Below are positions 49,356 through 64,000 of a stretch of 64,000 nucleotides of DNA, piece after piece. Below the pieces are notes generated by a model. It saw only the letters and a program-made list of their open reading frames with translations, was not told the origin of the DNA and searched no databases. Position 1 is the stretch's first letter. Each line of letters starts with the position of its first letter. This stretch comes from Candidatus Bathyarchaeota archaeon (GTDB lineage Archaea; Thermoproteota; Bathyarchaeia; Bathyarchaeales; Bathycorpusculaceae), in NCBI GenBank assembly GCA_963815095.1, contig CAWFFH010000004.1, forward strand, positions 160,001 to 224,000, given 5' to 3'. The position numbers and the translations under genes were made by a program.

Positions 49356-50380
49356 TTGGCTGCCTCACCTGATAACAACGCAAACACCTCTAGCAACACC
49401 AGTTTAAACAGTTTAGCGGATAAGCACTGGGGCATCGAAGCGCGGGTCTTTCATGCTATTGATGAATCAGAAATTGAGCTACGACCCATAGAGATTGCCC
49501 GCAAAATCCATGCGCCACACAAACCAACACGTGCCCAATGCACAACGGTTCGTGTGGTCCTAAGAAAACTCTTAGCGAAAGGGCTTAATCCTGCAGCCCT
49601 ATGTTGGAAGTTACTGCAACAAAATCACCTACGGGCTGCGGTTCGTACCACTATGCGTACACAACATAAGCTTACGCAGCTTTGTTTGTCAGGATGTGAA
49701 GTCTTGGGAAAAAGACGAGTTTGTGGGCGGCGTGAAGATTCATGTTTGCTTTGGAGCTGAGAGGCGTAAGATTTCTGGGTATATCGCTTGTGACGTTGGC
49801 GGTATGAGTCATGATGCTTGTCTATTGGCGCTTAACCGTTGGTTTGATATTGTCCAGGATCATCTTGGGCTGGCAACTAAACGACTTGCAGATTTTAACT
49901 TTTGAATGCAACAAAGACTACCACGGCGTACGCATCGATGGCGTTCAATGTGTAACTAAAACGGATCTCTTTGGAATGGTTGAGCGGGTGTACCAGAAAG
50001 AAGAGAACTTGGTTCGCAAAGAACGCAAGACTGTTCGCCCGGTGAGCGTGAATAAGTTTGAAGAGGCCATCGCAATGGGTTTTGCTGGCGTTGACAAGAC
50101 TCAGGAGCATTTTGAGTTAAAGGAAGAAGTTAAGCGAGTTAGTGAAGCTTTGAAGTTTAATAATTCTCGATCGCTGTCGATGGAGCGTTTGCTCGAGGCA
50201 ATTTACAAAAGCAAGGTCGCTGACGTCGAGAAAGTGAAAGGTCTTGAGGGTGAAGTTGCAGCCCTTAGAAGCGACATAGGCAAGCTGACTGCGGCGTTAA
50301 CTCAGGTTTTCAATTTTGAAGGTGAGCCCGATCGGGATCAAGCGGATGCGGGTGCGGGAGGTAAAGAGTATGTCTCTTAA
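49356..50380 (+). CDS. wHTH + putative replication-initiator-like domain + coiled coil (two frameshifts, about 49583 and 49869)
   Basis: Joins ORFs 49356-49760, 49696-49905 and 49811-50380 into one coherent protein. Confidence 0.55.
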
Positions 50381-50646
50381 GGTTACTGCGAACATTCATG
50401 CGGTGCAGTTAGAGCTGCTGGTGGGGCGAGTAATGCTAAGCCTACATTCTAGCCTTTGCATTGGGCTGTGTCCAGAGCTTCTGTACAACCGTCATAGTGT
50501 TCGCAGTAACTGGTTTTTGGAAGTTAAAAGGTGTTCAAAGGCACTTTTGGCACCTATTGGAAGGTATGGTAAAAGTCCATGCTTTTCAGAAGTTGCTTTT
50601 CTAAGGTTGCTTGGTCCTGATTACCCATTGTTAGTTTTACCATCTG

Positions 50647-51168
50647 TTGATGGACGAAAAAACATGGAGTGTGCACTCTGAAATGGAAGAAACGAAAAAC
50701 CCTGTTCAAAACCAGAAAAAGAGGCGAACTCAAAGTGATAAGATAGGCCGTTTGAAGTATAACCAGCAGCTCCTCAAACAGACTTTAGCCGAAGTTGAAG
50801 AGGTCAAGCTTATGCTTCGTACGATTTTTGCTGGTTTGAAGGGGTCTTTCAATTTTGAGCAATCCCTCATTGAGCGTGTTGCTTGCGTAGATGAGGTAGA
50901 TCGGGAGATTCTTCATGCTCTTTTTGAGGCTGGTTCTTCTGGGTTACTGCCTAAGGATTTGGCTGCTAAGCTTGAAAGATTTAAGGTTAACAGGCATAAG
51001 GTAAGCAGGAGACTTCTAAGAATGAATAAGCATCTGGAAGAAGAGTTTGGTGAAAATGTAGTAGAAAAACGAGGGTGGCATTGGGCGCTTACAAGCTTTG
51101 CTTCTGAAGCCTGGGGCAAAAGCAAAAGAGAAGTTGAAGAAGACCTAACTAAGTGTTGGAATGAATAA
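50647..51168 (+). CDS. Coiled-coil + winged-helix DNA-binding protein
   Basis: DEVDREIL..L..G..G.LPKDLA..VSRRL..VEKRGWHWALT. Confidence 0.7.
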   Translation: MMDEKTWSVHSEMEETKNPVQNQKKRRTQSDKIGRLKYNQQLLKQTLAEVEEVKLMLRTIFAGLKGSFNFEQSLIERVACVDEVDREILHALFEAGSSGLLPKDLAAKLERFKVNRHKVSRRLLRMNKHLEEEFGENVVEKRGWHWALTSFASEAWGKSKREVEEDLTKCWNE

Positions 51169-51295: not shown

Positions 51296-54200
51296 ATGGG
51301 TTTGTGTGTGAAGTTAAAAAAAGTCGGTTCGAACCTGCAAATTTCTTCTGATATCAAAGTTGCAAATGTGTTTCCAATTGTTGGGATTGGCGCTTCTGCA
51401 GGCGGATTAGACCCCATCAGGAAGTTTCTGGAGAATTTGCCTATTGATATGGGCATGTCTTTTGTTGTAGTCCAGCATTTGGCTCCGGGACAAGAAAGCC
51501 TTCTTCCTGAAATCCTTTCAAGATCCACTAAAATGAAGGTTTTGCAAGTTCAAGATGGCATGCAAATTGAACAGGATAAGGTCTACGTAATTACTCCAGC
51601 AACAACCATGACGTTGAAAAACGGACAACTCAGACTTGTTCCCAAAGGTTTGGCTCTCAAGCCCATCAACGACTTTATGATCTCCTTAGCATCCGAGCGA
51701 AAAACCAAAGCAATCGGAATTGTTTTGTCAGGAACTGGCAATGACGGAACCGAAGGATTAAAAGCAATCAAAGCCGAAGGCGGATTAACCTTTGCACAAG
51801 ACCCGGAAACAGCACAATATCCCGACATGCCCAAGAACGCCATAGCTGCAGAAGAACCGGATTTTGTCCTTTCACCAGAACAGATAGCCCAAGAAATAGT
51901 TAAGATCGGCAATCACCCTCAACTCAAACATTCCGAAATGTCGGCCAAACAAGAAAAAACCGAGACCGACTTGAAGAAAATTATCATGCTGCTAAAGTCT
52001 TCTTTTGGCGTTGATTTTACCCATTACAGAGACACAACAATTGACCGACGCATTACACGACGCATGGTCATTAACAAGTCAGAAAACATGACGGCATATG
52101 TCGAGTATTTGCGGAAGAATCCGAGTGAGCTGCAGTTATTGTTTGACGACCTGTTAATTGGCGTAACAAGCTTCTTTAGGGAACCGGACACTTTCGTGGC
52201 ATTGAAAGAAAAAGTTTTTCCAGAACTCATCAAGAACAAGTCACCCAACGAATCCATACGAGCTTGGATTCCAGGCTGTTCCACAGGAGAAGAAGTCTAT
52301 TCTTTTGCCATAACAATTCAAGACTTCCTAGAAGAAAAAGGCATACCCGAGATAAGGGTTCAAATTTTTGGAACGGATGCAAATGAGAAAAACATTGAGA
52401 AATCTCGACAAGGAACCTATCCAAAAAACATAGAAGACAACGTCTCCGAAAACAGGCTAAAACGATTCTTCACTTTCTCCAACGAACATTATCGGATAAC
52501 AAAAACTATTCGTGACATTTGCATTTTTGCAAAACAGGACATTACAACTGATCCTCCTTTCTCCAACATAGATCTCATTATGTGCAGAAATGTGCTTATT
52601 TATTTTGATTCTTACCTTCATGAAAAAATATTGCACATTTTCCATTATGGCCTAAAAACGAATGGTTTTCTAGTTCTGGGCGAGGCTGAAAGTGTTGGCA
52701 AGTTTCAGTATCTGTTTCAACCAATTATTCCAGGAAGCCTAATTTTCCGGAAGAAACAAGCCCAACCACAGGTATTGTTAGGTGAAGAAGTCTTTGTTCC
52801 TCACTCTATGAAGAAAACTGCTGAACCGCTTGAAAAAGCAGACTTGATATCGGTTTTGAGCGAGAAAGTTGATCATCTTATAACATCGGAGTATGGACCG
52901 GCGACTTTGTTGTTGAACAACAACTTGGATATACTGGTGTTTCGCGGAGATGTTGCTCCTTTTCTTTCGCCCGAATCGGGAGTCGCGAGCTTTAACGTAA
53001 CCAAGATTGTTCGCAAAGAGTTGAGGTCGCAAGTTCAGACTGCTTTGTATAGGGCAAGAAAAGAAAAGAGAGCTATTAAAGAAACGGTGGGTTTCAAACA
53101 AAAAGGGCAATCAAAGACAGTTAACATCGAGATAAGACCATTAGAAACAGCACAGTTCGAAGAACCGTTCTACCTTGCATTATTTACTGAAGGACCCACG
53201 CGCGATGCTTCTTTAGCTAAAGAAGTTGAATCTGTTGTTTTGCAAGGTGAGGCGGAGAGCCTTAAGGATCGTCAGATTCGTGAACTCGGAGAGGATTTGG
53301 ATGCAACTAAGCGATCTTTGCAGAGTCTTATGGAGGGGCAGCAGGCGACTAATGAGGAGTTGCGGTCGTCTATGGAGGAGGTTCAGTCGAGCAATGAAGA
53401 ATTGCAGAGTACAAATGAAGAGTTGGAAACCGCAAAGGAGGAGCTGCAGTCAGGCAATGAGGAGCTGCAGACTCTTAACGAGGAGCTTAAGAACCGCAAT
53501 CAGGCTCTTGGTCGCCTAAACGATGACCTAACTAACTTGCAAACGAACATTGACCTTCCCGTGGTTATTGTCGATAATGAGCTTAAGATTAGGCGTTTTA
53601 CTGTTTCAGCTCAAAAACTTTTGAAGATTTCGCCATCCGATGTTGGGCGGCCTATTACCGATTTCAATCTGGGCGTTTATGCTGTTGATTTAGGAAAGAC
53701 AATCTTGGATGTTACCACTAAGTTAGCTGGTGTTATTCAAGAAGTTGCTTGCGCCGAAGACCGGTCGTGTGAGATGAGTGTTCGACCGTACTTGACTGAG
53801 GAGAAAAAGATTGACGGGGCAGTTCTATCCTTCACGGACATAACCGAACGCAAGAAAATGGCGCAAGAGTTATCTGTCTCTCTCGAAGATTCACAGCGGC
53901 GTGAGTCTGAGATTTCAGCCTTATTGAAATCATCAAAAGTAGTTTTGCAAAACAAAGAATTTCCGGATTCGGCGCGAGCAATATTTGACGCTGCCAAAGA
54001 ATTAATTGGAGCCACAGCTGGCTATGTCGCCCTCTTAAGTGATAACGGAAGAGAAAACGAAGTCTTGTTCTTGGATGCTGGAGGGCTTCCTTGTACGGTT
54101 GATCCTTCGCTTCCGATGCCTATTCGTGGACTCCGTTCTGAAGCGTACAACTCTGGGAAAGTGGCAGTTGAAAATGATTTTAACAAAAGTGAATGGAAGA

Positions 54201-55180
54201 AATTTATGCCTGATGGTCATGTGCAACTCAAGAGTGTATTGTTTGCACCATTGATGATTGAACAGAGAGCTGTCGGGGTAATCGGGTTAGCTAATAAACA
54301 GGGTGGATTCACCAAACGTGATCGCGAAATGGCAATGGCGTTTGGAGAAATTGCCTCGGTTGCCTTAGCCAACAGTAAAATGCTTGAGATGCTGGAAGAA
54401 AATGAAAAAGAGTTAAAGAAGCACTCTGAGCATTTGGAGGGGCTTGTTGAGGAGCGAACCAAGCAGCTTAAAGATTCTGAACGCTTGGCGGCTATTGGTG
54501 CAAACTGCAGGCATGGTTGGGCATGATATTCGAAATCCTCTGCAAGCTATAACTGGCGATGTATATTTGGCTAAAACAGAATTAGCTTCAACGCCTGAGA
54601 GCGAAGAGAAAAAGAGTGCATTAGAAAGTCTTACAAGAGATTGAGAAGAACATTGATTACATTAACAAGATTGTGGCTGATCTACAAGATTTTGCAAGAC
54701 CACTTAAGCCAAATGCAGAAGAAACCGACCTAAAACCGTAATTGATGAACTTACTATCGAAAAATGGTTTACCCGAGAACGTTAAAGTAAGCGTTAAAGT
54801 TGAAGCTGAAGCTAGAAAAATTGTGGCTGACTCTACTTTCATTAACCGCATTATGTACAATTTGGTTAATAATGCTGTTCAAGCGATGCCAAAAGGCGGC
54901 AAACTAACTATACACGTCTACAAAGAAGCAAAAGATGTCTTAATAACTGTCAAGGATACAGGCGTTGGCATTCCTGAAGTATGTAAAAAGCAAATTGTTT
55001 ACGCCTATGTTCACGACTAAAGCTAAAGGTCAAGGCTTCGGCTTAGCTGTGATTAAACGTATGACTGAAGCATTAGGCGGCACCGTAACTTTTGAGAGCC
55101 AAGAAGGCAAAGGAACAACTTTCAAAGTACGTTTGCCCCCCCCCAAAGAGCTAAACGGTAAATTGGTCTACAAGCATTGA
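51296..55180 (+). CDS. CheB-CheR-PAS-GAF-histidine kinase hybrid (3' part frameshifted)
   Basis: GASAGG/QHL/GTGNDG (CheB); VTSFFRE, GCSTGEE, CRNVLIYF (CheR); NEELQS coil; GHDIRNPL, NNAVQAM, DTGVG, GQGFGL in successive frames. Confidence 0.88.
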
Positions 55181-55608: not shown

Positions 55609-56149
55609 CTAAATGTGAATGTTTTTTAGACGTTTGATACTCGATTTTAGAGAATTCCTAAAGCAGTAAGAACATGAAAAATTATCACTAAGAAAAACAC
55701 CATAACTAAAGCTGGCGTGAATAAATTGGTTAGTCTTATGGTCTATTTGCTTTACTAAAGGGAATCTTTCTGCGAAACCTGTTGTCACTTCCAAAGTTAA
55801 TGCAATGTACAGGATTAAGCCTGTTCCTAACGCTGGGTAGAATGCTATTGGTCTTCCCAGTTGAGCTGCAAAATGAATTGAGATTAGTGAAAAGAAGAGA
55901 AGGTTTCCAAAGATGTGGTACCTAAGGAGCCCCTTAAACTTTTAAGGGGTAAAAACGCTTTAAGACCACGAATGCTGGAGTATCGATTGCAATGTAGCTT
56001 GTGCCAATTATGGAGAGCCAATGGCTAAAACGAAGAGGACCAACAAAGAAAAGCACGTTTAGAAAATGTAGGTATGCAGAAACCATAAGCGAACCTGCTA
56101 CTAAGACAATTAACAGTGCCAGCAAGAACTCAGAATCTTTGAAATTCAC
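55609..56149 (-). CDS. Multi-TM His-containing protein, ferric-reductase/cytochrome-b-like (frameshifted)
   Basis: ORFs 55934-56149 and 55609-55794 joined via LLRYHIFGNL..SIHF; several TM His. Confidence 0.5.
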
Positions 56150-56250
56150 TAAAATCCACTAACTTAACTGATGAACAACCGAATATAAAAGTTACTTGAA
56201 GAGCAGCGCCTTGAGATGTCAACTCAACTCGCTCCTTGCAATTTAGCGCT

Positions 56251-56391
56251 CTAATTCTTTTGTTCAGACAAAACGTTCTCAAAATGTAGCTCTATGTATT
56301 CGCTTCTTGATCTTTTCTGCTTGGAAGCTTCTTTGTCTATCTTCTCTAAAACGCGGTTAGAGAGGGCTATGCTTACTGGGTGTTTACGCAT
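56251..56391 (-). CDS. Ribbon-helix-helix (CopG/Arc-like) regulator
   Basis: MRKHPVSIALSNRVLEKIDKEASKQKRSRSEYIE. Confidence 0.85.
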   Translation of the reverse strand: MRKHPVSIALSNRVLEKIDKEASKQKRSRSEYIELHFENVLSEQKN

Positions 56392-56455: not shown

Positions 56456-56492
56456 ACAGCCTTTTTCAGCAAAATAAGCCTAATTCTGCCTT

Positions 56493-57244
56493 ATGACCCA
56501 GGATAACTGTAACGGTTGCAAGCATGTTCGAGAACATGTAGCTTCCCTTTTACCCTTCAAAGTTTTAGAATCAATCGCAGACAAACCCTTGCGTATTGGT
56601 GGAGTTGCAATGGCTCCGGGCTGTCTCGAAATTTCAATGTTTACACGCCTGAGGAACTTGGGATTTTCGCAGAGAAGCTAGTTAATGCTCCAGTGTATAT
56701 TGAGCATGTTGCTGTTGAAACTGCCTCTGGAAAAGTCACGAAATGCACATACGATGCGGCAACTCGCAGTCTGCTTTATGAAGCTGAGATTTACGATCAA
56801 GCGATTGCGGATAAAATTCGCAACGGTCTCATCCAGCACGTTAGTGTCGGCGCCGACTATGACTCACTTGATGTAGTTGACGCCAAAGTTCCTCATGGGC
56901 TTTTCAATCCTGAACTGTCCCTTGTAGCTGTTCCGGGCATTCCTGAGACAAACGTGCATGTGATAGAGCGGGTTGAGGAGAAACAGCTTCAGGAAAAGCT
57001 CGCTCAAAGAGAATGCAAGTTAACTGAAGCGCAAACAACAATTGAGGATTTACGCAAGCAATTGCCCAGTGCCAGTTTGCTTAAGAATCCGCCTAAAATG
57101 ATGCCTGTTTCTGAGCATGTTTCTGAGGTAAAGGGCTTGCTGTCACCTTTGATGGTTGAGCGCAGTTCCATGTTTGCCATGCGGAAACAGCAAGAGATTA
57201 GAGCTGTTCTGTTTCGTGCTAAAGAAAAGTATGGAGTGGACTAG
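56493..57244 (+). CDS. HK97-type prohead protease with C-terminal scaffold-like coil (frameshift about 56620)
   Basis: I.GVA..SRN..Y..EEL, PV.IEH, VSVG, ELSLVAVPG. Confidence 0.8.
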
Positions 57245-57327
57245 CTGTGTTTTTGCTCACTTTTGTGGGGAAGAGTACCAAAGGACGAACTTTGGGAAAT
57301 TCAAAAAATTTAATCGATTTGATTTGA

Positions 57328-57756
57328 ATGGCCGATAAAACAGGCAAAGCTTGGATGGCTGCAGGAGAAACAGACGACCCAAACGCTATCATAGAATCTT
57401 TTGAAGCAGCAGTCGGCGTCACTAAAGGCTCACCGGTTTACTTGAGCGCTGACGATAAGGTCTCGCCAAGTCCAGGCGGAGACGACGCAATTGGCATAGC
57501 AACTAAAACTGTTCTGGCAACCGAAATATGCCCAGTTCTAAAGCGTGGACGAGTCAAAGTCACTGTAGATGGAGCTATAACACGTGGAAAAGCGGTGTGT
57601 GGTGCAGCTAACGGGAAAGTTACTCAATTCGTTGACCAAGCGGTGAACGAAGGCGGAGCAGCAACTTTAACCATCTTCTACAATCGCAAATTAGGCACAG
57701 CGCTTGAATCTGCAACAACTGACGGCGATTTCATCTTCATCAATGTGGAGAAGTGA
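57328..57756 (+). CDS. Capsid cement/decoration protein (DUF2190-like)
   Basis: A...VTKG.PV..AIGIA..GRVKV...GAI..G..V..G.V..G.ALE.A..GD.I. Confidence 0.7.
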   Translation: MADKTGKAWMAAGETDDPNAIIESFEAAVGVTKGSPVYLSADDKVSPSPGGDDAIGIATKTVLATEICPVLKRGRVKVTVDGAITRGKAVCGAANGKVTQFVDQAVNEGGAATLTIFYNRKLGTALESATTDGDFIFINVEK

Positions 57757-57760
57757 TTGC

Positions 57761-58724
57761 ATGAAACCTAAACTATTCGAAGCTCTACAGATAGCACGAT
57801 TCTGAACAGAAGCGCGTCTATGAAGACCTAAAACGCAAACTTGAGGTGAACCCGTTTCTTAAGCGCTATGTTGCTGTGGGCGTAAAAGAAGGATTCTTTA
57901 GCGACTCGGCAAATGCGCTTGGACGCGTGCATGACACTATGGTTGAAGCTGCTTGGCCCGAACTAATAGGTAGAAGCATAATCAACGTTATGCCGACCAA
58001 TGAAGCAATGGAGCGTTTCCCACTCGACGAAGACGCAGTTGCTTATCAATATGCTGAAGGCGCAGTCGTACGCTTAAGCGGCAAAAAACCCAGCAAGGTT
58101 GACATATACACAAATATCACCGTAGAGTCAGGCGATGAATGGACCAAAGAGTTCGATGAAGACGCAACCTGGAACGTTATGGACCGCATGGTGAGCAACG
58201 TTGGCAGAGCAGTCGGAGTCAAGGAAACCCAGAAAATTCATATCCCTCTATGCTGCTATCGCTGATGCTGATTTGGCGACTGGTGCAGTACTTGCCGGCG
58301 GCGGTGCAGTGTTAAGTTGGGCGTCAACTTTTATCGTTACATTATGCGGTGCGCAGTCAGAATTGGAAGCCAAATGTTTTGGCAATCAATGAGATGCAAC
58401 TGCATCAGTTGCTAAACGATGAGAACTTTATGAAACGGAGTTATGCTGCCAAGTACGCAAACTGACATTGACCAAGGATCCATCGGTACGATATTGGGTA
58501 TGAAGGTTCAAGCCAGCACTGGAGATTCCAAACGGAACAGCCTACGCAATTAGACACACGAGTTGCTACTGTGATGCTTCTACGAAGAGACGTCACTGTG
58601 GAAGACTGGGAAGACGTCAAAAACAGGCAAGTACGGCATCCGAGGCACCACCCGCTTTGGGTTAGGCATTTTGCGCTCCAAAGCTATTGCCAAGATGACC
58701 AACATCAAAGCAACACTAACCTAA
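57761..58724 (+). CDS. Major capsid protein, HK97-like fold (several frameshifts)
   Basis: AEGA E-loop region, EFDEDATWNVM helix, G.ILGMKV, C-terminal YGIRGTTRFGLGILRSKAI; position after protease and cement. Confidence 0.75.
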
Positions 58725-58794
58725 AAGCGCTTCAAAAACCATCAACATTTCCCTCTTTTTTTGGGATTGAATAAAAATCAAGGTAATCTACGTC

Positions 58795-60042
58795 ATGAGT
58801 AAAGTCATCAGAAAAATCCGTGAGGTCCTCTCTTATGCGCCTGCTTCTGGCGTGGCAACTCCAAATGGCAGAGTGTTCTTTGACACTTCCTGCATTCCCT
58901 TAGCAGATGTTATGAAGCTCTATGACCGAGACCCAACCTGCAAGAGCAGCGTGGATTTATTGGCTGCTTCAACAGTTGGCATGGGCTTCTACACCACTGT
59001 AGATGAGAAATACGAGAAGGCAGAAGCGAAGCCAAAGCCGCCGTTGATAAGTTCTGTGAAGACGTCAACTTGATGGCTTACTAAATGATATGGCTAAGCC
59101 TTTGATTGGCTGCGGCAACGATTTTTGGCTTAAACTCACGCCTGAACAAGCTAACGGATACTCTGCGTATGCCCATCGATGCAGTGCAACGCATTGGACT
59201 AAGCTCTGTTCCCAACTTGAAATTCCCTACAAAGTTACGGGTTACCAACTTCAAAGCACCTATGGCGGCAATGCTGGAAATGAGCTTAAGCCTGAAGCGG
59301 TTATCCATTGGCGCCTTAACGGTGATGTTCCTTCGGGTTTTGGTGTTGGACTTGCTGCAGGTGCTCTTGCACACCTTAACCATTGACACCGATAAGCGCC
59401 CTTCTGACGCTTGGATGAAAGCCAAGATAGAGAAAATTCTGCCCAACATATTCACAAAGTACGCTGGACCGGACGTTGTGGTGCAACTGGAAGGCCAGAA
59501 AGAGGACACCATCAAAAAGTATGAAACGGCAATCAAGAATCGACCTGAAGAGGGGCAGTGGCTTTTCAGTGGCGCCAAAACCGTCGGCGTAAATCCAGTA
59601 ACTATTGACCCAAGAGCACGCTTCGAGTACTACATCGACCACATGGTTAACCAATTCTATCTCGGATGCGAAACGCCATTGCCACGGTTGTTTAGCACTC
59701 CAGGCTTTACCGAAGCAAGCGCAAAAGCTGCGCTAGAACTTCAAGATATGCTCATAAAACCCGTCCAGCGCTACATCAAGCGCCAAGTCGAAAAAGAACT
59801 TTTCGCCCTTGTTGTTGCTCAAGGCGGGTTTGATGCCGCCAAAGCTAAGGTAAGATTGAATTTTGGCTAGTCCCAAAACACCTGAACTAGTCCTAACCGA
59901 TCTCATCAAAGCAGCTGAACTTGGGTTAGTTCGAGCGGAAGAATTCCGAAAGAACGCAGTAAAATTCGGTTGGGAACTCTGGGACGATACTTCACAGAAA
60001 CGTAGTCAAAGTAACACATCAGATAGCAAGGGAGGTGATTGA
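58795..60042 (+). CDS. Portal protein (several frameshifts)
   Basis: Y..DP..KS.VD.LA..VG.GF, LIGCGNDFW, VIHW..GFG.GL, IKPVQR..KR.VE. Confidence 0.7.
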
Positions 60043-60235
60043 CACGGCAATCTTATCGAACAATGAAGAAGGGTTTATTCTTGGAATCGCAGAAGCAAGC
60101 GGAGCAGGAGCAGCGTTCTTAGCAACACAGCCAGTTGACCCAGCCCTCAAAGTTGCAGCATGCGGCATTTTGGGCTTTATCAGCGTAACGCTCAACGCTT
60201 TCTGGTTCAAATACGTAAAACCAGCTTCTTCTTAG
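60035..60235 (+). CDS. Small 2-TM protein (holin-like)
   Basis: Two hydrophobic segments, 66 aa, within the virion module. Confidence 0.45.
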   Translation: MIDTAILSNNEEGFILGIAEASGAGAAFLATQPVDPALKVAACGILGFISVTLNAFWFKYVKPASS

Positions 60236-60398
60236 GCTTTTTTGGCTTGACACGGCTCACTTGAGGGGCTGTGCAAGAATCCAAACAAGAGGGAACAAGC
60301 AAGATGACGAGAGAATCAAAAGTTGCAGATGTGGCATTTAGCGGAGCGTTTGGACTTAGCAATCAGTTCATTATTGTTCCTTTGGGGGCATTCATAAC

Positions 60399-60752
60399 TT
60401 GGCTTCTGTTTCAGTTGATGACGTTCGGGATGTCCTTTACATATTAGCGATTCCGATATTCCCGACGCTAAAATCTTAAAAATGATTAAACGCGCATCTG
60501 TGACCTTGGCACTTGAGCTATCTGAAAACATCGATTATTCAAATTGTTCAGACTCTCAAAAGGAAGGCATAACGCTTCTGGCAGCTATCTATGCGGTCTG
60601 CTACTTAACTGGCGGCTCAGCAATCGGCTTAAACTTTCAGCGTCGGCGACCTAACAAGCTCAACATCATCTTTACCAAGCTTAACAGTTTTGCAAACGGA
60701 GTTCGAACGGATTCTTGCTAGCCTCAAAGAGCCTTATGTGGGGAGCGTGTAG
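60399..60752 (+). CDS. Head-tail adaptor-like protein (frameshifted)
   Basis: VS.DDVR..L.I..DIPD..I..MIKRA..AA..S.S.GD pattern, about 115 aa helical. Confidence 0.6.
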
Positions 60753-60754
60753 AG

Positions 60755-62150
60755 ATGGGAACCGTTCCTGAAGCCTATTATCAGTTTATAATGGACTATG
60801 CGCCCATACGTTTACATTATTCCGCCAAACACACCAGACCCAGCATATGGAAAAGGCGTTTTAGCAGCTAGCTTCGCTATCGACTTTTTATGTGAAGCGT
60901 ATTCTGCCAATCAGTTTGAGGACAGAAAAGAAAGAGGTCTATGACAAAATCGTAAGTTTAGCTGATTGGGTTCTAACCCAGCAATGCATCGACCCAGCAA
61001 GGAAGGCTTATGGCGGTTTCAAAAGCGCAGAAAACAGCACTTACTATTACAGCGTGGATGCTTGCAGAGTTATTCCTTCACTTCTAAGAGCCTATGAACT
61101 CACAAACTGATAGCCGATATTTAGACACTGCAAAGCTTGCTGGTGGAACTTTTCTTAAAACCATGCAGGACCAGCAATCATACGGCGGCTTCGCTAGAGC
61201 AGTAACTATCGGCGATGCTTGGCTTTTGCAGATGGACGTCGAATGCCTCTATGGATTAATCGGTTTGAATATGTTGGCGGAAAAGCACGATGTCCCAAAC
61301 TCTGTAGTCTACCAGGATATTATGAGTAAAGCGATCGGTTTTCTAGGGAACGGCTTTGAGAACCTTTGGCTAAGCTATGACCCTTCAGATGGAAAATGGC
61401 ACCGGGTTGGCTTAAATGAGAACGAGGTTTATGATGACCCGTTCGCCTATGCTTTGCTTGGATTATATGATTTTGAAGGCTGGAGCGCAAGCTGCCAAAG
61501 AGTCTACAATTGCCTAAACAGCATAAGAGCAAACGCAAAATATCCAGCTTATAATCCTGCAGTTTGCTGGGCAGGATACATAGATATCATTAGCCGATTC
61601 TCAGCATGCGATTATTACGATGCCGTCACAAGCGGAATTTTATGGAAAATCCGCAGCAACCACGACAAACCAAGTCTTGAATTTAGCATCAAAGTCCTCG
61701 AGAAGCATAGCGAGGAATTCATGTTCTGGGGCGCCAAACACGCAGACTACAGTTATGTTGAAAACAAGCAGGCTATGGTTACCGTTTGCTGGCTTGCGCA
61801 CTTATTCCTCAACTATGAAGAACCCTCAACCCACATTCACAAGGATTTTAAAAAGCAAGGGTGAGACAATTCAGCTTTATCCGATCAGGCAAGCTGCCGA
61901 CACTTTGGATTATGGTGAGCCACTGGATTTGTTAGCTACTGTTTCTGCTTTGAAAGAAGAGCAAGTAATGCTTGAAGCAGGCTACTACCTAAACGACTAC
62001 ATCGCATTCTACACGTTTCTTCCAGTTCGGGTTCATGACAAAATAAGGCGCCAAGGCGAAGACTACGAAATCCAAACAGTAACACCCTACATTTTTGCGA
62101 ACCAGCGGATTTACTTCAAAAGCGTAGCAAGGAGGCTGATTGGCAATTGA
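60755..62150 (+). CDS. Alpha/alpha-barrel domain fused to head-closure-like domain (frameshifted)
   Basis: LADWVLTQQ..GGF and FLKTMQ..GGF repeats; C-terminal GETIQLY..V..HDKIRRQGEDYEIQTV. Confidence 0.6.
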
Positions 62151-63168
62151 GCGTGGTCGAAGTTGAGAATCCCGTCGTAACTGTTCTGCGCTTAATTGAA
62201 TCCCGAATTAGGGTTGTTAAAGACGATGGCGGATTAGCAAACATCCGGTGTTCGCAAGCAAACTATGACCGCGAACTCCTAAAAGACGTAGACGCCCAAA
62301 TTACACTCTCCAAAACCACTGACCCATGCCTACCCCAAAAACACACCTTGGATGGAAAGTTAAGGCGCCGCATCTATTCGCTAAGAGCAACAATCTTTGC
62401 AATCGATAAGCCAACTCCAAGCGCCGATGTTGGCAGAGTTATGCGAGACAAAATTCTTGAACAGCTGCTTTTGATTGTTCCTGAAAACCGCAACCTACCC
62501 TACAGAACCATCTACAACTTTTACCCACTAAACTCAACGTCTACAACTCACAAAGCCTACACTGCAGCAGCTTTGGCGGAACTTGAACCCTCAAGCGCGT
62601 CTTGGGTAGAACTGTCTGATTTGGAATATCCAAACCTTTGGAGCAGTGACGACGTTAGGCACTCTAAAAGCGCAAGCGGCATCAATGAATTTGCGTTTAT
62701 GCTATTCCGCTTCAAAATCGGTTCTAAAGCTGGAGAAACCCGCAATGAACCCCGAAAACAGTGCTTAAAGCGCGTAGTCTTGTCCTTTGAAGGCTACGGG
62801 ACTGCACCCATGGGAAACGGTTTAACCTGCAAAGTCTGGGATAACGTGGCGGGCGCATGGACTAATCCCCAAAGTAGCGTTTCAGAAACAGATGAAACCA
62901 CAACCATCACACTTAACGTCAAATCTAACCAACTACGTCAATGATGACGGCTACCTCTACTTATTGGCACAGACAACCCATTCAAGCGATGGAAACACAC
63001 CGCCGTTTTGTACTGCGATTTTATCCAAGCAACCGTTGACGTGCGAGGCATAACGTTTTGTGACGTGCACAGTTACCGAGACATCGACGTTGTTGATGTC
63101 AAACCCTTCCTCTACAAAGAAGAAATCATCTCATGGCATGGCTCTTCGAGTCCATAGCCATCTCATAG
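62147..63168 (+). CDS. Tail terminator-like protein with inserted beta-sandwich domain (frameshifted)
   Basis: Position before tail tube; alpha/beta N-part, beta-rich insert, C-terminal strands to TAG 63168. Confidence 0.5.
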
Positions 63169-63184
63169 TCATAGGTGAAACCGA

Positions 63185-64000
63185 ATGGTTGACACATATC
63201 ACTCCGACCAAGAAAAATTCTATTACGTGACCGAAGGCTCCTTCGGCGTTGTTCCAGCGACTCCAGCGATGCTTGGGCACTCCTGCAGCAACATTGACCC
63301 GGACATAAACCCAAACAACATCAGAGTTCCAGGAACAGGTTCAGTGGATGCGGTAGCGCTTAAACAAGGCTTAAGACAGCCCACGCTGCAATTGAAGTAT
63401 CCGATTCCTTCAGATGCACCAATTAATCTTTTGCAGTATGTTAAGCAGGAGCTAAACAACAGCCTCACCCTCCAGGTGCTCTACTACAAAGACATTTTCG
63501 CCACAGCAACCGACATCATAAGCCTACTCTATAAGGGCGCACGCTTCAACAATGCAACGCTCACATGCGACATAGACGGTCTTTTGGAGTGCGAAGCAGA
63601 ATTTCTAGCCCAAGACATCGAAGTAACCACAGCTAAAATCGCAGATGCAACCTACACCGATTATGCTGGCGCCGTTTCAGGCAGTGAAAGCTACGTCAAA
63701 ATAGGCGGTGTATCTTGTGAGCGGGTTACTTCTTGGAAACTTTCAGATTGACAACTCTTGCAAACCTGTCCCAGTCATCAGATCAGTCAATGGGCACTTA
63801 GCCAAGTACATCCCATGGGGCAAGCGTCTTCTAACTGGAGAATTGAACTTTGAGTTTGAAAGCAAACAAGAAGCCGACGACATTTTAGCCGACACAGAGC
63901 AATCCAGCTTAGAGTTTGGGCTTGGCGGAGCCAACAAAGTTAATGTTGCTTACGCAAAGTGGGATGATTTTTCTTTGAGCGGTAAATCTGAGGATTTGAT
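63185..64000 (+). CDS. Major tail tube protein, siphovirus-like (frameshift about 63740; truncated by window)
   Basis: YY.TE.SFG..P; two similar beta-rich halves (..LQLKY.. and ..SWKL.IDN..G.R.LTGELNFEF). Confidence 0.7.

Follow-up and report, generated by a model that had tools for sequence, protein, structure and literature searches.

The stretch of DNA analysed here, 64,000 nucleotides (nt) of a genome of the archaeal class Bathyarchaeia (assembly GCA_963815095.1, contig CAWFFH010000004.1), ends in a set of head and tail genes that had been put forward as a gene transfer agent (GTA)-like system or a new provirus lineage. We conclude that this locus is likely a defective remnant of a temperate head-tailed virus of the Caudoviricetes type with an HK97-fold capsid, which belongs to a common family of Bathyarchaeia viruses and lies beside a tRNA-Ser gene. 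The whole stretch is referred to as the window and corresponds to G000:C4:160001-224000, where G000 is the studied genome (completeness 98.45%) and C4 the contig. As C4 extends a further 71 kb past the window end, reading was continued there, and positions above 64000 are given as C4 minus 160000.

The virion gene set claimed from 56.5 kb is present. It occupies the + strand from that point to the window end and onward to ~66.0 kb on the same contig, and is collinear with loci in IMG/VR and with related proviruses. Alignment to locus L027 gives nucleotide identities of 74.9% over 56508-60284 and 78.3% over 60413-66001, and 11 other loci are alike. The genes of the module, and the features at its right end, are as follows.

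56484..57244, + strand: prohead-protease-like gene with a coiled-coil C-terminal part, its N-terminal ~60 codons in a different frame; collinear with open reading frames (ORFs) of 250-362 amino acids (aa) in relatives
57328..57756, + strand: cement/decoration- or scaffold-like protein, 142 aa, open; Pfam matches below cut-off and PHROG 673
57795..58730, + strand: HK97-fold major capsid protein gene, in at least three frames, with 7 one-base insertions in the assembly; family assigned through an intact homologue
58795..60042, + strand: portal candidate, in at least three frames (416 aa in relatives); language-model lead, with private indels
60043..60480, + strand: variable slot with two small hydrophobic frames; from hydropathy and comparison with loci L027 and L025
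60400..60758, + strand: homologue of a 116-aa protein, in two frames; 79-87% identity to L029:11143-11493
60749..62150, + strand: homologue of a 467-aa protein, in four pieces with four one-base insertions; from alignment to L029:11484-12884
62147..63174, + strand: homologue of a 338-aa protein, with three one-base events; 72% identity to L029:12884-13900
63179..64000, + strand: tail tube gene (PF18906), in two frames with a one-base insertion at 63741, crossing the window end and running to ~64049
64077-64536, + strand: homologue of a 175-aa protein, with 5 one-base insertions
64576-64953, + strand: HK97-gp10-like gene, open (PF04883)
64950-65534, + strand: homologue of a 195-aa protein, open
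65535-66077, + strand: codons 1-175 of a gene for a 531-aa protein (phrog_400 and phrog_1887, 'tail protein'), the last part with homology to relatives
65960-66379: C-terminal remnant of a tyrosine integrase, approximately residues 318-405 of the 421-aa integrase of the provirus in genome G013, in another frame from ~66026
66522-66607: tRNA-Ser (TGA), probable integration target; ARAGORN, on L008:14522-14607

Within the window, direct family support exists for two genes only, the tail tube and the 142-aa cement-like protein. The others lack family matches because most are not open in the assembly: in a map of stop-free frames the capsid gene, the portal candidate, the 467-aa and 338-aa genes and the tube gene are each spread over 2-4 frames. 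The tail-tube call is borne out by a PF18906 match above cut-off (31.1 bits against 27, on window positions 63185-63751), and the protein shows 83-91% identity to L029:13907-14782, in two frames. The HK97-fold capsid call holds through the intact homologue L029:8668-9621, which matches PF05065 at 29.4 bits (cut-off 24.2) and the PHROG major head protein at 9.6e-15; the frame-broken window copy aligns over residues 14-317 of this relative. The 142-aa protein, with 82% identity to L029:8233-8661 and no private indel, matches three Pfam cement families at 22.4-22.9 bits, under their cut-offs of 24-27, and PHROG 673 'head scaffolding' at 5e-12.

At 56494 the protease-like gene has gained one base and at 56615 it has lost one, both changes being private to this copy. 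The language-model neighbours of its protein are Peptidase_S78 clusters (score 0.92, 184 shared features), and a PDB profile search gave no significant match. For the portal candidate, relatives have open frames of 401-444 aa compared with 254 aa in the window copy, and there are 59 full-length homologues among the viral loci. Its language-model neighbours are Portal_Mu/Phage_portal clusters (score 0.97, 179-181 shared features); there was no Pfam, PHROG or PDB sequence match, and an AlphaFold model was unusable (predicted local distance difference test, pLDDT, 41). The slot that follows, which is 1.3 kb shorter than in the nearest relatives L027 and L025, had been read as one protein with two transmembrane segments. 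Two hydrophobic stretches are there (KD19 1.8-1.96), one in each of two adjacent small frames. The names 'adaptor' and 'terminator', given to the 116-aa and 338-aa homologues respectively, received support from no search that was run: the former has no Pfam or PHROG family match, and the latter no Pfam match and no significant match in a PDB profile search. The proposed 'barrel-closure fusion', the 467-aa homologue, is modelled as an (alpha/alpha)6 toroid with a C-terminal beta domain (pLDDT 74.8, predicted template modelling score 0.79). Foldseek relates this model to GH76, GH8 and epimerase toroids at E values of 6e-6 to 5e-4, with weak sequence matches, and 42 full-length homologues occur in viral loci. 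The virus family carries a glycan-enzyme-like toroid protein among its neck genes; the retention of a glycoside-hydrolase/epimerase-like toroid plus beta domain between the portal and tube genes is an odd site for an enzyme-like fold.

The gene order of the intact virus can be read from L029 and from the provirus in G013. In both, the late operon begins with the protease-like gene (250-362 aa), the cement-like gene (142 aa), the HK97 capsid gene (317 aa; PF05065, phrog_267) and the portal candidate (~416 aa), and continues with genes for 116-aa, 467-aa and 338-aa proteins and the 291-aa tube (PF18906). These are followed by a 175-aa protein, the HK97-gp10-like protein (104 aa), a 195-aa protein and the 531-aa tail protein (phrog_400, phrog_1887), and then by 137-aa and 152-aa proteins, the large terminase (481 aa) and an ABC-type ATPase. 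The terminase of L029 matches PF03237 and, at 4e-37, phrog_2 (PHROG terminase large subunit). Directly 3' of it, the ABC-type ATPase has a GNAT-like part (L085:10473-11912 in G013; L029:20374-20763; phrog_293, 1.5e-35). In the 32.8-kb G013 provirus, a type I restriction-modification set comes after the ATPase, then an integrase (PF00589) and a tRNA-Ala gene, and a 25-nt direct repeat of the tRNA end recurs 32.8 kb to the left. Four viral loci likewise adjoin a tRNA gene (tRNA-Arg, tRNA-Lys, tRNA-Lys and tRNA-Arg).

The unusual gene order that was noted from the window is confirmed by these relatives. In 17 of the 30 viral loci with at least 9.5 kb after the portal gene, the terminase gene comes after the tail genes and on the same strand; it is upstream in 0/64. 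The remaining 13 of the 30 have longer inserts or tail genes, and their terminase may sit beyond the stored flank. The reordered operon is therefore a trait of an ordinary temperate virus family. The family itself is widespread. The 254-aa portal piece as query gave 72 pattern matches in IMG/VR, of which 65 proved to encode a relative; these fall in 64 loci, at 49-74% identity. With the capsid of an intact relative, 138 stretches were confirmed in genome_contigs; 72 of the best 80 are titled Bathyarchae*, which agrees with the assignment of the module to tailed viruses of Bathyarchaeia, and the other 8 comprise four entries titled 'uncultured archaeon', two contigs of Methanocella metagenome-assembled genomes (MAGs), one Thermoproteota entry and one Pirellulales MAG contig. 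These loci document a virus family that is widespread in Bathyarchaeia and keeps a fixed, unusual order in its late operon, in which the capsid precedes the portal and the terminase follows the tail genes.

Against this template the studied copy is cut short. Homology to 34 relatives stops between 65646 and 66020, most often at 65986, and the protein match to the 531-aa tail protein covers residues 1-175 only. What adjoins the cut is the integrase remnant, with 36% identity (E 1e-16) to the integrase of the G013 provirus, itself a carrier of PF00589; the remnant spans the region where the C-terminal catalytic residues of that integrase family lie. The tRNA-Ser gene follows and, beyond it, host genes for a proteasome alpha subunit and a family B polymerase. 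Remnant and tRNA lie 2-2.6 kb past the window end and had been overlooked. It had been suggested that missing genes might lie beyond 64 kb and that terminase, integrase and att sites be sought there; some of the missing genes do lie there, and an integrase remnant and a tRNA gene were found, but no terminase. The absence of a terminase ahead of the module is correct by a family profile scan of the locus, as is that of an integrase or tRNA at its left edge, and the terminase is absent from the module locus as a whole (family scan and homologue search). It is missing in this copy because the copy is truncated, not because the lineage is without one.

As relatives show, the tyrosine integrase of the intact virus inserts the viral genome into a tRNA gene. 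The copy studied here retains the left arm, a cargo slot occupied by a sensor kinase, and the genes for the head and the proximal tail. A single deletion fused the 531-aa tail gene, at codon ~175, to the integrase gene at about codon 300. Lost with it were the distal part of the tail, terminase, ABC-type ATPase, cargo genes and the N-terminus of the integrase, an interval of ~18 kb in G013. Without a terminase and with a truncated integrase, the element would be expected neither to package DNA nor to excise.

A GTA-like or domesticated particle system, namely a replication-less head-tail cluster under host control that draws its terminase from elsewhere, is hardly credible on this evidence. 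The locus does lack a terminase, a replication gene and a complete integrase. Were the base insertions described below errors, the retained genes would be open, with change of a purifying type (nonsynonymous/synonymous, N/S, 0.39). The genome also holds a terminase homologue at C3:853490-854920, the only one elsewhere in G000 apart from a 47-residue piece. The original prediction had named signs that would mark an ordinary provirus, and it is these that were found: an integrase remnant and a tRNA at the right end, a patchy multi-copy distribution and intact relatives bounded by att repeats. The module is a collinear fragment of a family with terminase, integrase and att repeats, and its last tail gene breaks off at codon 175 out of 531. 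Although a GTA locus would lack integrase and att sites and any trace of recent integration, here an integrase remnant adjoins tRNA-Ser; although it would have a terminase available, there is none in the locus and the sole homologue in the genome is split.

That homologue (C3:852772-854923) is a large terminase that stands alone, 65% identical to that of the family and divided between two ORFs (293 and 154 aa) in one frame; the only other virus gene close to it is a small family homologue upstream. We considered whether it completes a dispersed GTA-like set and rejected this, as it is a solitary interrupted remnant.

Nor does the distribution of the family resemble vertical inheritance at one chromosomal position. 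A portal match occurs in 17 of 41 related genomes (G000 included), made up of 9/24 in the same genus and 7/16 in other families of the order besides G000 itself, with up to 8 matches per genome. In all four relatives in which the orthologous flank was checked through the proteasome gene (G011, G013, G002 and G015), no module lies beside it; only the proteasome gene is shared. Domestication with conserved synteny is contradicted by this patchy, multi-copy pattern and by the empty flank in 4/4 relatives. A candidate archaeal GTA is thereby removed, and what seemed to be missing at the left edge, terminase and integrase, reflects truncation and the end of the window, not domestication.

The frame breaks of the module genes, which the original prediction overlooked, raise a different question. 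Counting private events in 11 module genes against four intact relatives, we found 31 frameshifting events (23 one-base insertions, 6 one-base deletions and 2 other changes not a multiple of three) plus 3 multiples of three. Eight of the 11 genes are frame-broken and three have no private event; the insertions sit at non-homopolymer sites. When frames are projected on the columns of the relatives, at most 2 internal stops remain in ~2,800 codons. The broken tract extends from 54.5 kb, within the sensor-kinase gene, to 64.5 kb, while the virus DNA runs on unbroken to 66.0 kb. Stop-free frames of at least 120 aa cover 0.47-0.49 of 54-62 kb, compared with a contig median of 0.80 and a 5th percentile of 0.51.

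As a control in host genes, 138 ORFs of at least 300 aa from twenty 20-kb pieces of G013 were matched to G000. Of these, 95 had a top match of at least 60% identity and 14 had no match, and 29 weaker matches were dropped. The match was in one piece for 90/95 and split for 5. One of the five probably represents two genes, for prefoldin and an SRP54-type GTPase, and was excluded. In the remaining four (CODH-like, AIR-synthase-like, GHMP kinase and helicase-nuclease), 9/9 one-base events are insertions in G000; these tracts lie at G000:C3:779582-780629, C3:795275-796367, C3:121281-122259 and C3:1025158-1029165. Consensus error in the assembly is the best explanation because the insertion-only signature also hits metabolic genes and comes in tracts, and from the sequence comparisons we regard it as the probable cause. 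If the insertions were real, they would imply a very odd mutational bias. Breakage in the assembly does not prove decay, and the retained genes may still be open in the cell.

The alternative, that the frame breaks are real and the module is a string of pseudogenes left by a long-dead provirus, is unlikely but deserves serious weight. The number of frameshifts in 8/11 genes and the low stop-free cover speak for it, as do a somewhat raised private N/S and the broken state of other family remnants in G000. It fits poorly, however, with the excess of insertions over deletions (23 to 6) at non-homopolymer sites, with the presence of at most 2 nonsense codons beside 31 frameshifts, and with amino-acid identities to L029 that are as high as those of the intact G013 copy (tube 83-91% compared with 88%). 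Furthermore, the tract has its start within a host-type kinase gene and its end 1.5 kb short of the end of the virus DNA, and the same insertion-only signature (9/9) appears in host genes, the GHMP kinase and CODH-like genes included. Unless reads support it, a broken frame in this assembly should not be taken for a pseudogene. One public DNA run was matched (share 0.06) and no RNA run, and an exact 40-nt stretch between two insertion sites had 0 matches in viral_contigs and 0 in metagenome_contigs.

Several observations weigh against our interpretation of the locus as a truncated provirus. Firstly, the portal and protease assignments are leads only: both calls stand as language-model neighbourhoods, Peptidase_S78 in the case of the protease. 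Secondly, the integrase fragment alone has no Pfam match and is only 36% identical to the sole intact family integrase compared, and it could stem from another element. Thirdly, no copy of attL was detected: tRNA-Ser with 40 nt on either side has no 20-mer at up to 3 mismatches on the + strand of 44-57 kb, a genome-wide short BLAST with 60 nt on either side returned 13-nt matches only, and a direct repeat search found no repeat. Because of this, we infer integration at tRNA-Ser from adjacency only. Additionally, the private nonsynonymous/synonymous count of 47/122 = 0.39 exceeds the 0.16-0.28 of the four intact relatives, which would fit some real relaxation of selection. In contigs of run X1, the extra base is missing at 5 insertion sites and present at 2 deletion sites; these contigs come from relatives only (2/22 at 99% or more) and decide nothing.

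Finally, the deletion joint at ~66.0 kb could be an assembly join. A complete provirus in the cell, with the joint produced by assembler collapse or chimerism, is nonetheless quite improbable. Local consensus problems do occur in exactly this tract, and a family that is multi-copy in related genomes invites collapse. Yet the genome, at 98.45% completeness, has no second portal copy and no complete terminase arm, the capsid has no second copy anywhere in it, and no indel occurs in the final 1.5 kb ahead of the joint. If the insertions are consensus errors, an open module without terminase or active integrase, locked beside tRNA-Ser, could conceivably have been retained for some purpose of its own. 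It might yield particles or capsid-like compartments with help in trans from a superinfecting virus of the same family, much as a satellite does, or be an early GTA-like step; we consider this very improbable.

To the left of the head genes, two further blocks of the provirus can be recognised.

49811..51168, + strand: left-arm genes, comprising a regulator-like 189-aa ORF, a 121-aa ORF and a 179-aa family member (50647-51168); tblastn against relatives
51296..55180, + strand: CheB-CheR-PAS-GAF sensor kinase; Pfam CheB_methylest, CheR, PAS_10 and GAF_2, with HATPase_c on fragments

By tblastn, 49808-50377 matches the C-terminus of a 321-aa winged helix-turn-helix protein in the G013 provirus, and 50635-51165 matches 28 loci (best 73%), with 69% identity to L029:249-788. 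The sensor kinase occupies a variable cargo slot between left arm and head genes, a position that holds methylases and other cargo in relatives. The kinase gene is open for its initial 1,076 codons; the HATPase_c end (54.5-55.2 kb) is divided among frames, with three one-base insertions relative to three intact paralogues. This end belongs to a family with ~20 copies in G000. Just left of the head genes, 55650-56260 is an 88% identical duplication of G000:C1:19690-20300 without long + strand frames. A tRNA-Val gene at 46.5 kb was considered as an integration site and discarded, the adjoining 416-aa ORF being a DUF2400 protein, not an integrase.

Other remnants of the family persist in the same genome. 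A tail-only paralogous remnant at G000:C4:29113-35745, with 44-70% amino-acid identity and also split, contains a 537-aa toroid protein, a 286-aa protein, the tube, a gp10-like protein and a split homologue of the 531-aa protein, followed by a DUF7380/DUF4209 protein. No head genes and no terminase were found in it. Further scraps of the family lie at C3:1.18 Mb.

RcGTA of Rhodobacter capsulatus is a head-tail cluster that lacks replication genes and encodes an HK97-type capsid, a protease and a portal, and GTAs keep a terminase in the cluster, hold a conserved position and are inherited vertically. The G000 locus resembles RcGTA in being a head-tail cluster with HK97-type capsid, protease-like and portal-like genes and no replication genes, but differs in having no terminase and an integrase remnant, and its relatives show a patchy, multi-copy distribution with att repeats on their flanks. 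It also resembles bacterial cryptic (defective) prophages, for example the remnants known from Escherichia coli K-12, in which a partial gene set remains beside a tRNA site after internal deletion. As in those remnants, a partial virus set lies beside a tRNA gene and packaging and recombination functions have been deleted, although the host is an archaeon and the virus family a different one. Head-tailed viruses of Bathyarchaeia have been described, with the proposed families 'Fuxiviridae' and 'Kunpengviridae' and one virus with an integrase (PMC10848311), and eight Bathyarchaeia proviruses have been found through capsid, integrase, tRNA and direct repeat (PMC11705971). In the excerpts of these two reports, a terminase gene after the tail genes is not described for their viruses, and the truncation of the G000 copy sets it apart from those viruses. 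As far as the excerpts go, the family analysed here shares with them the host class and an HK97-type capsid, putative portal, large terminase and tail tube, compared by description and not by sequence. With the described proviruses it also shares integrase-mediated integration at a tRNA gene with flanking direct repeats, as seen in the intact relative in G013.

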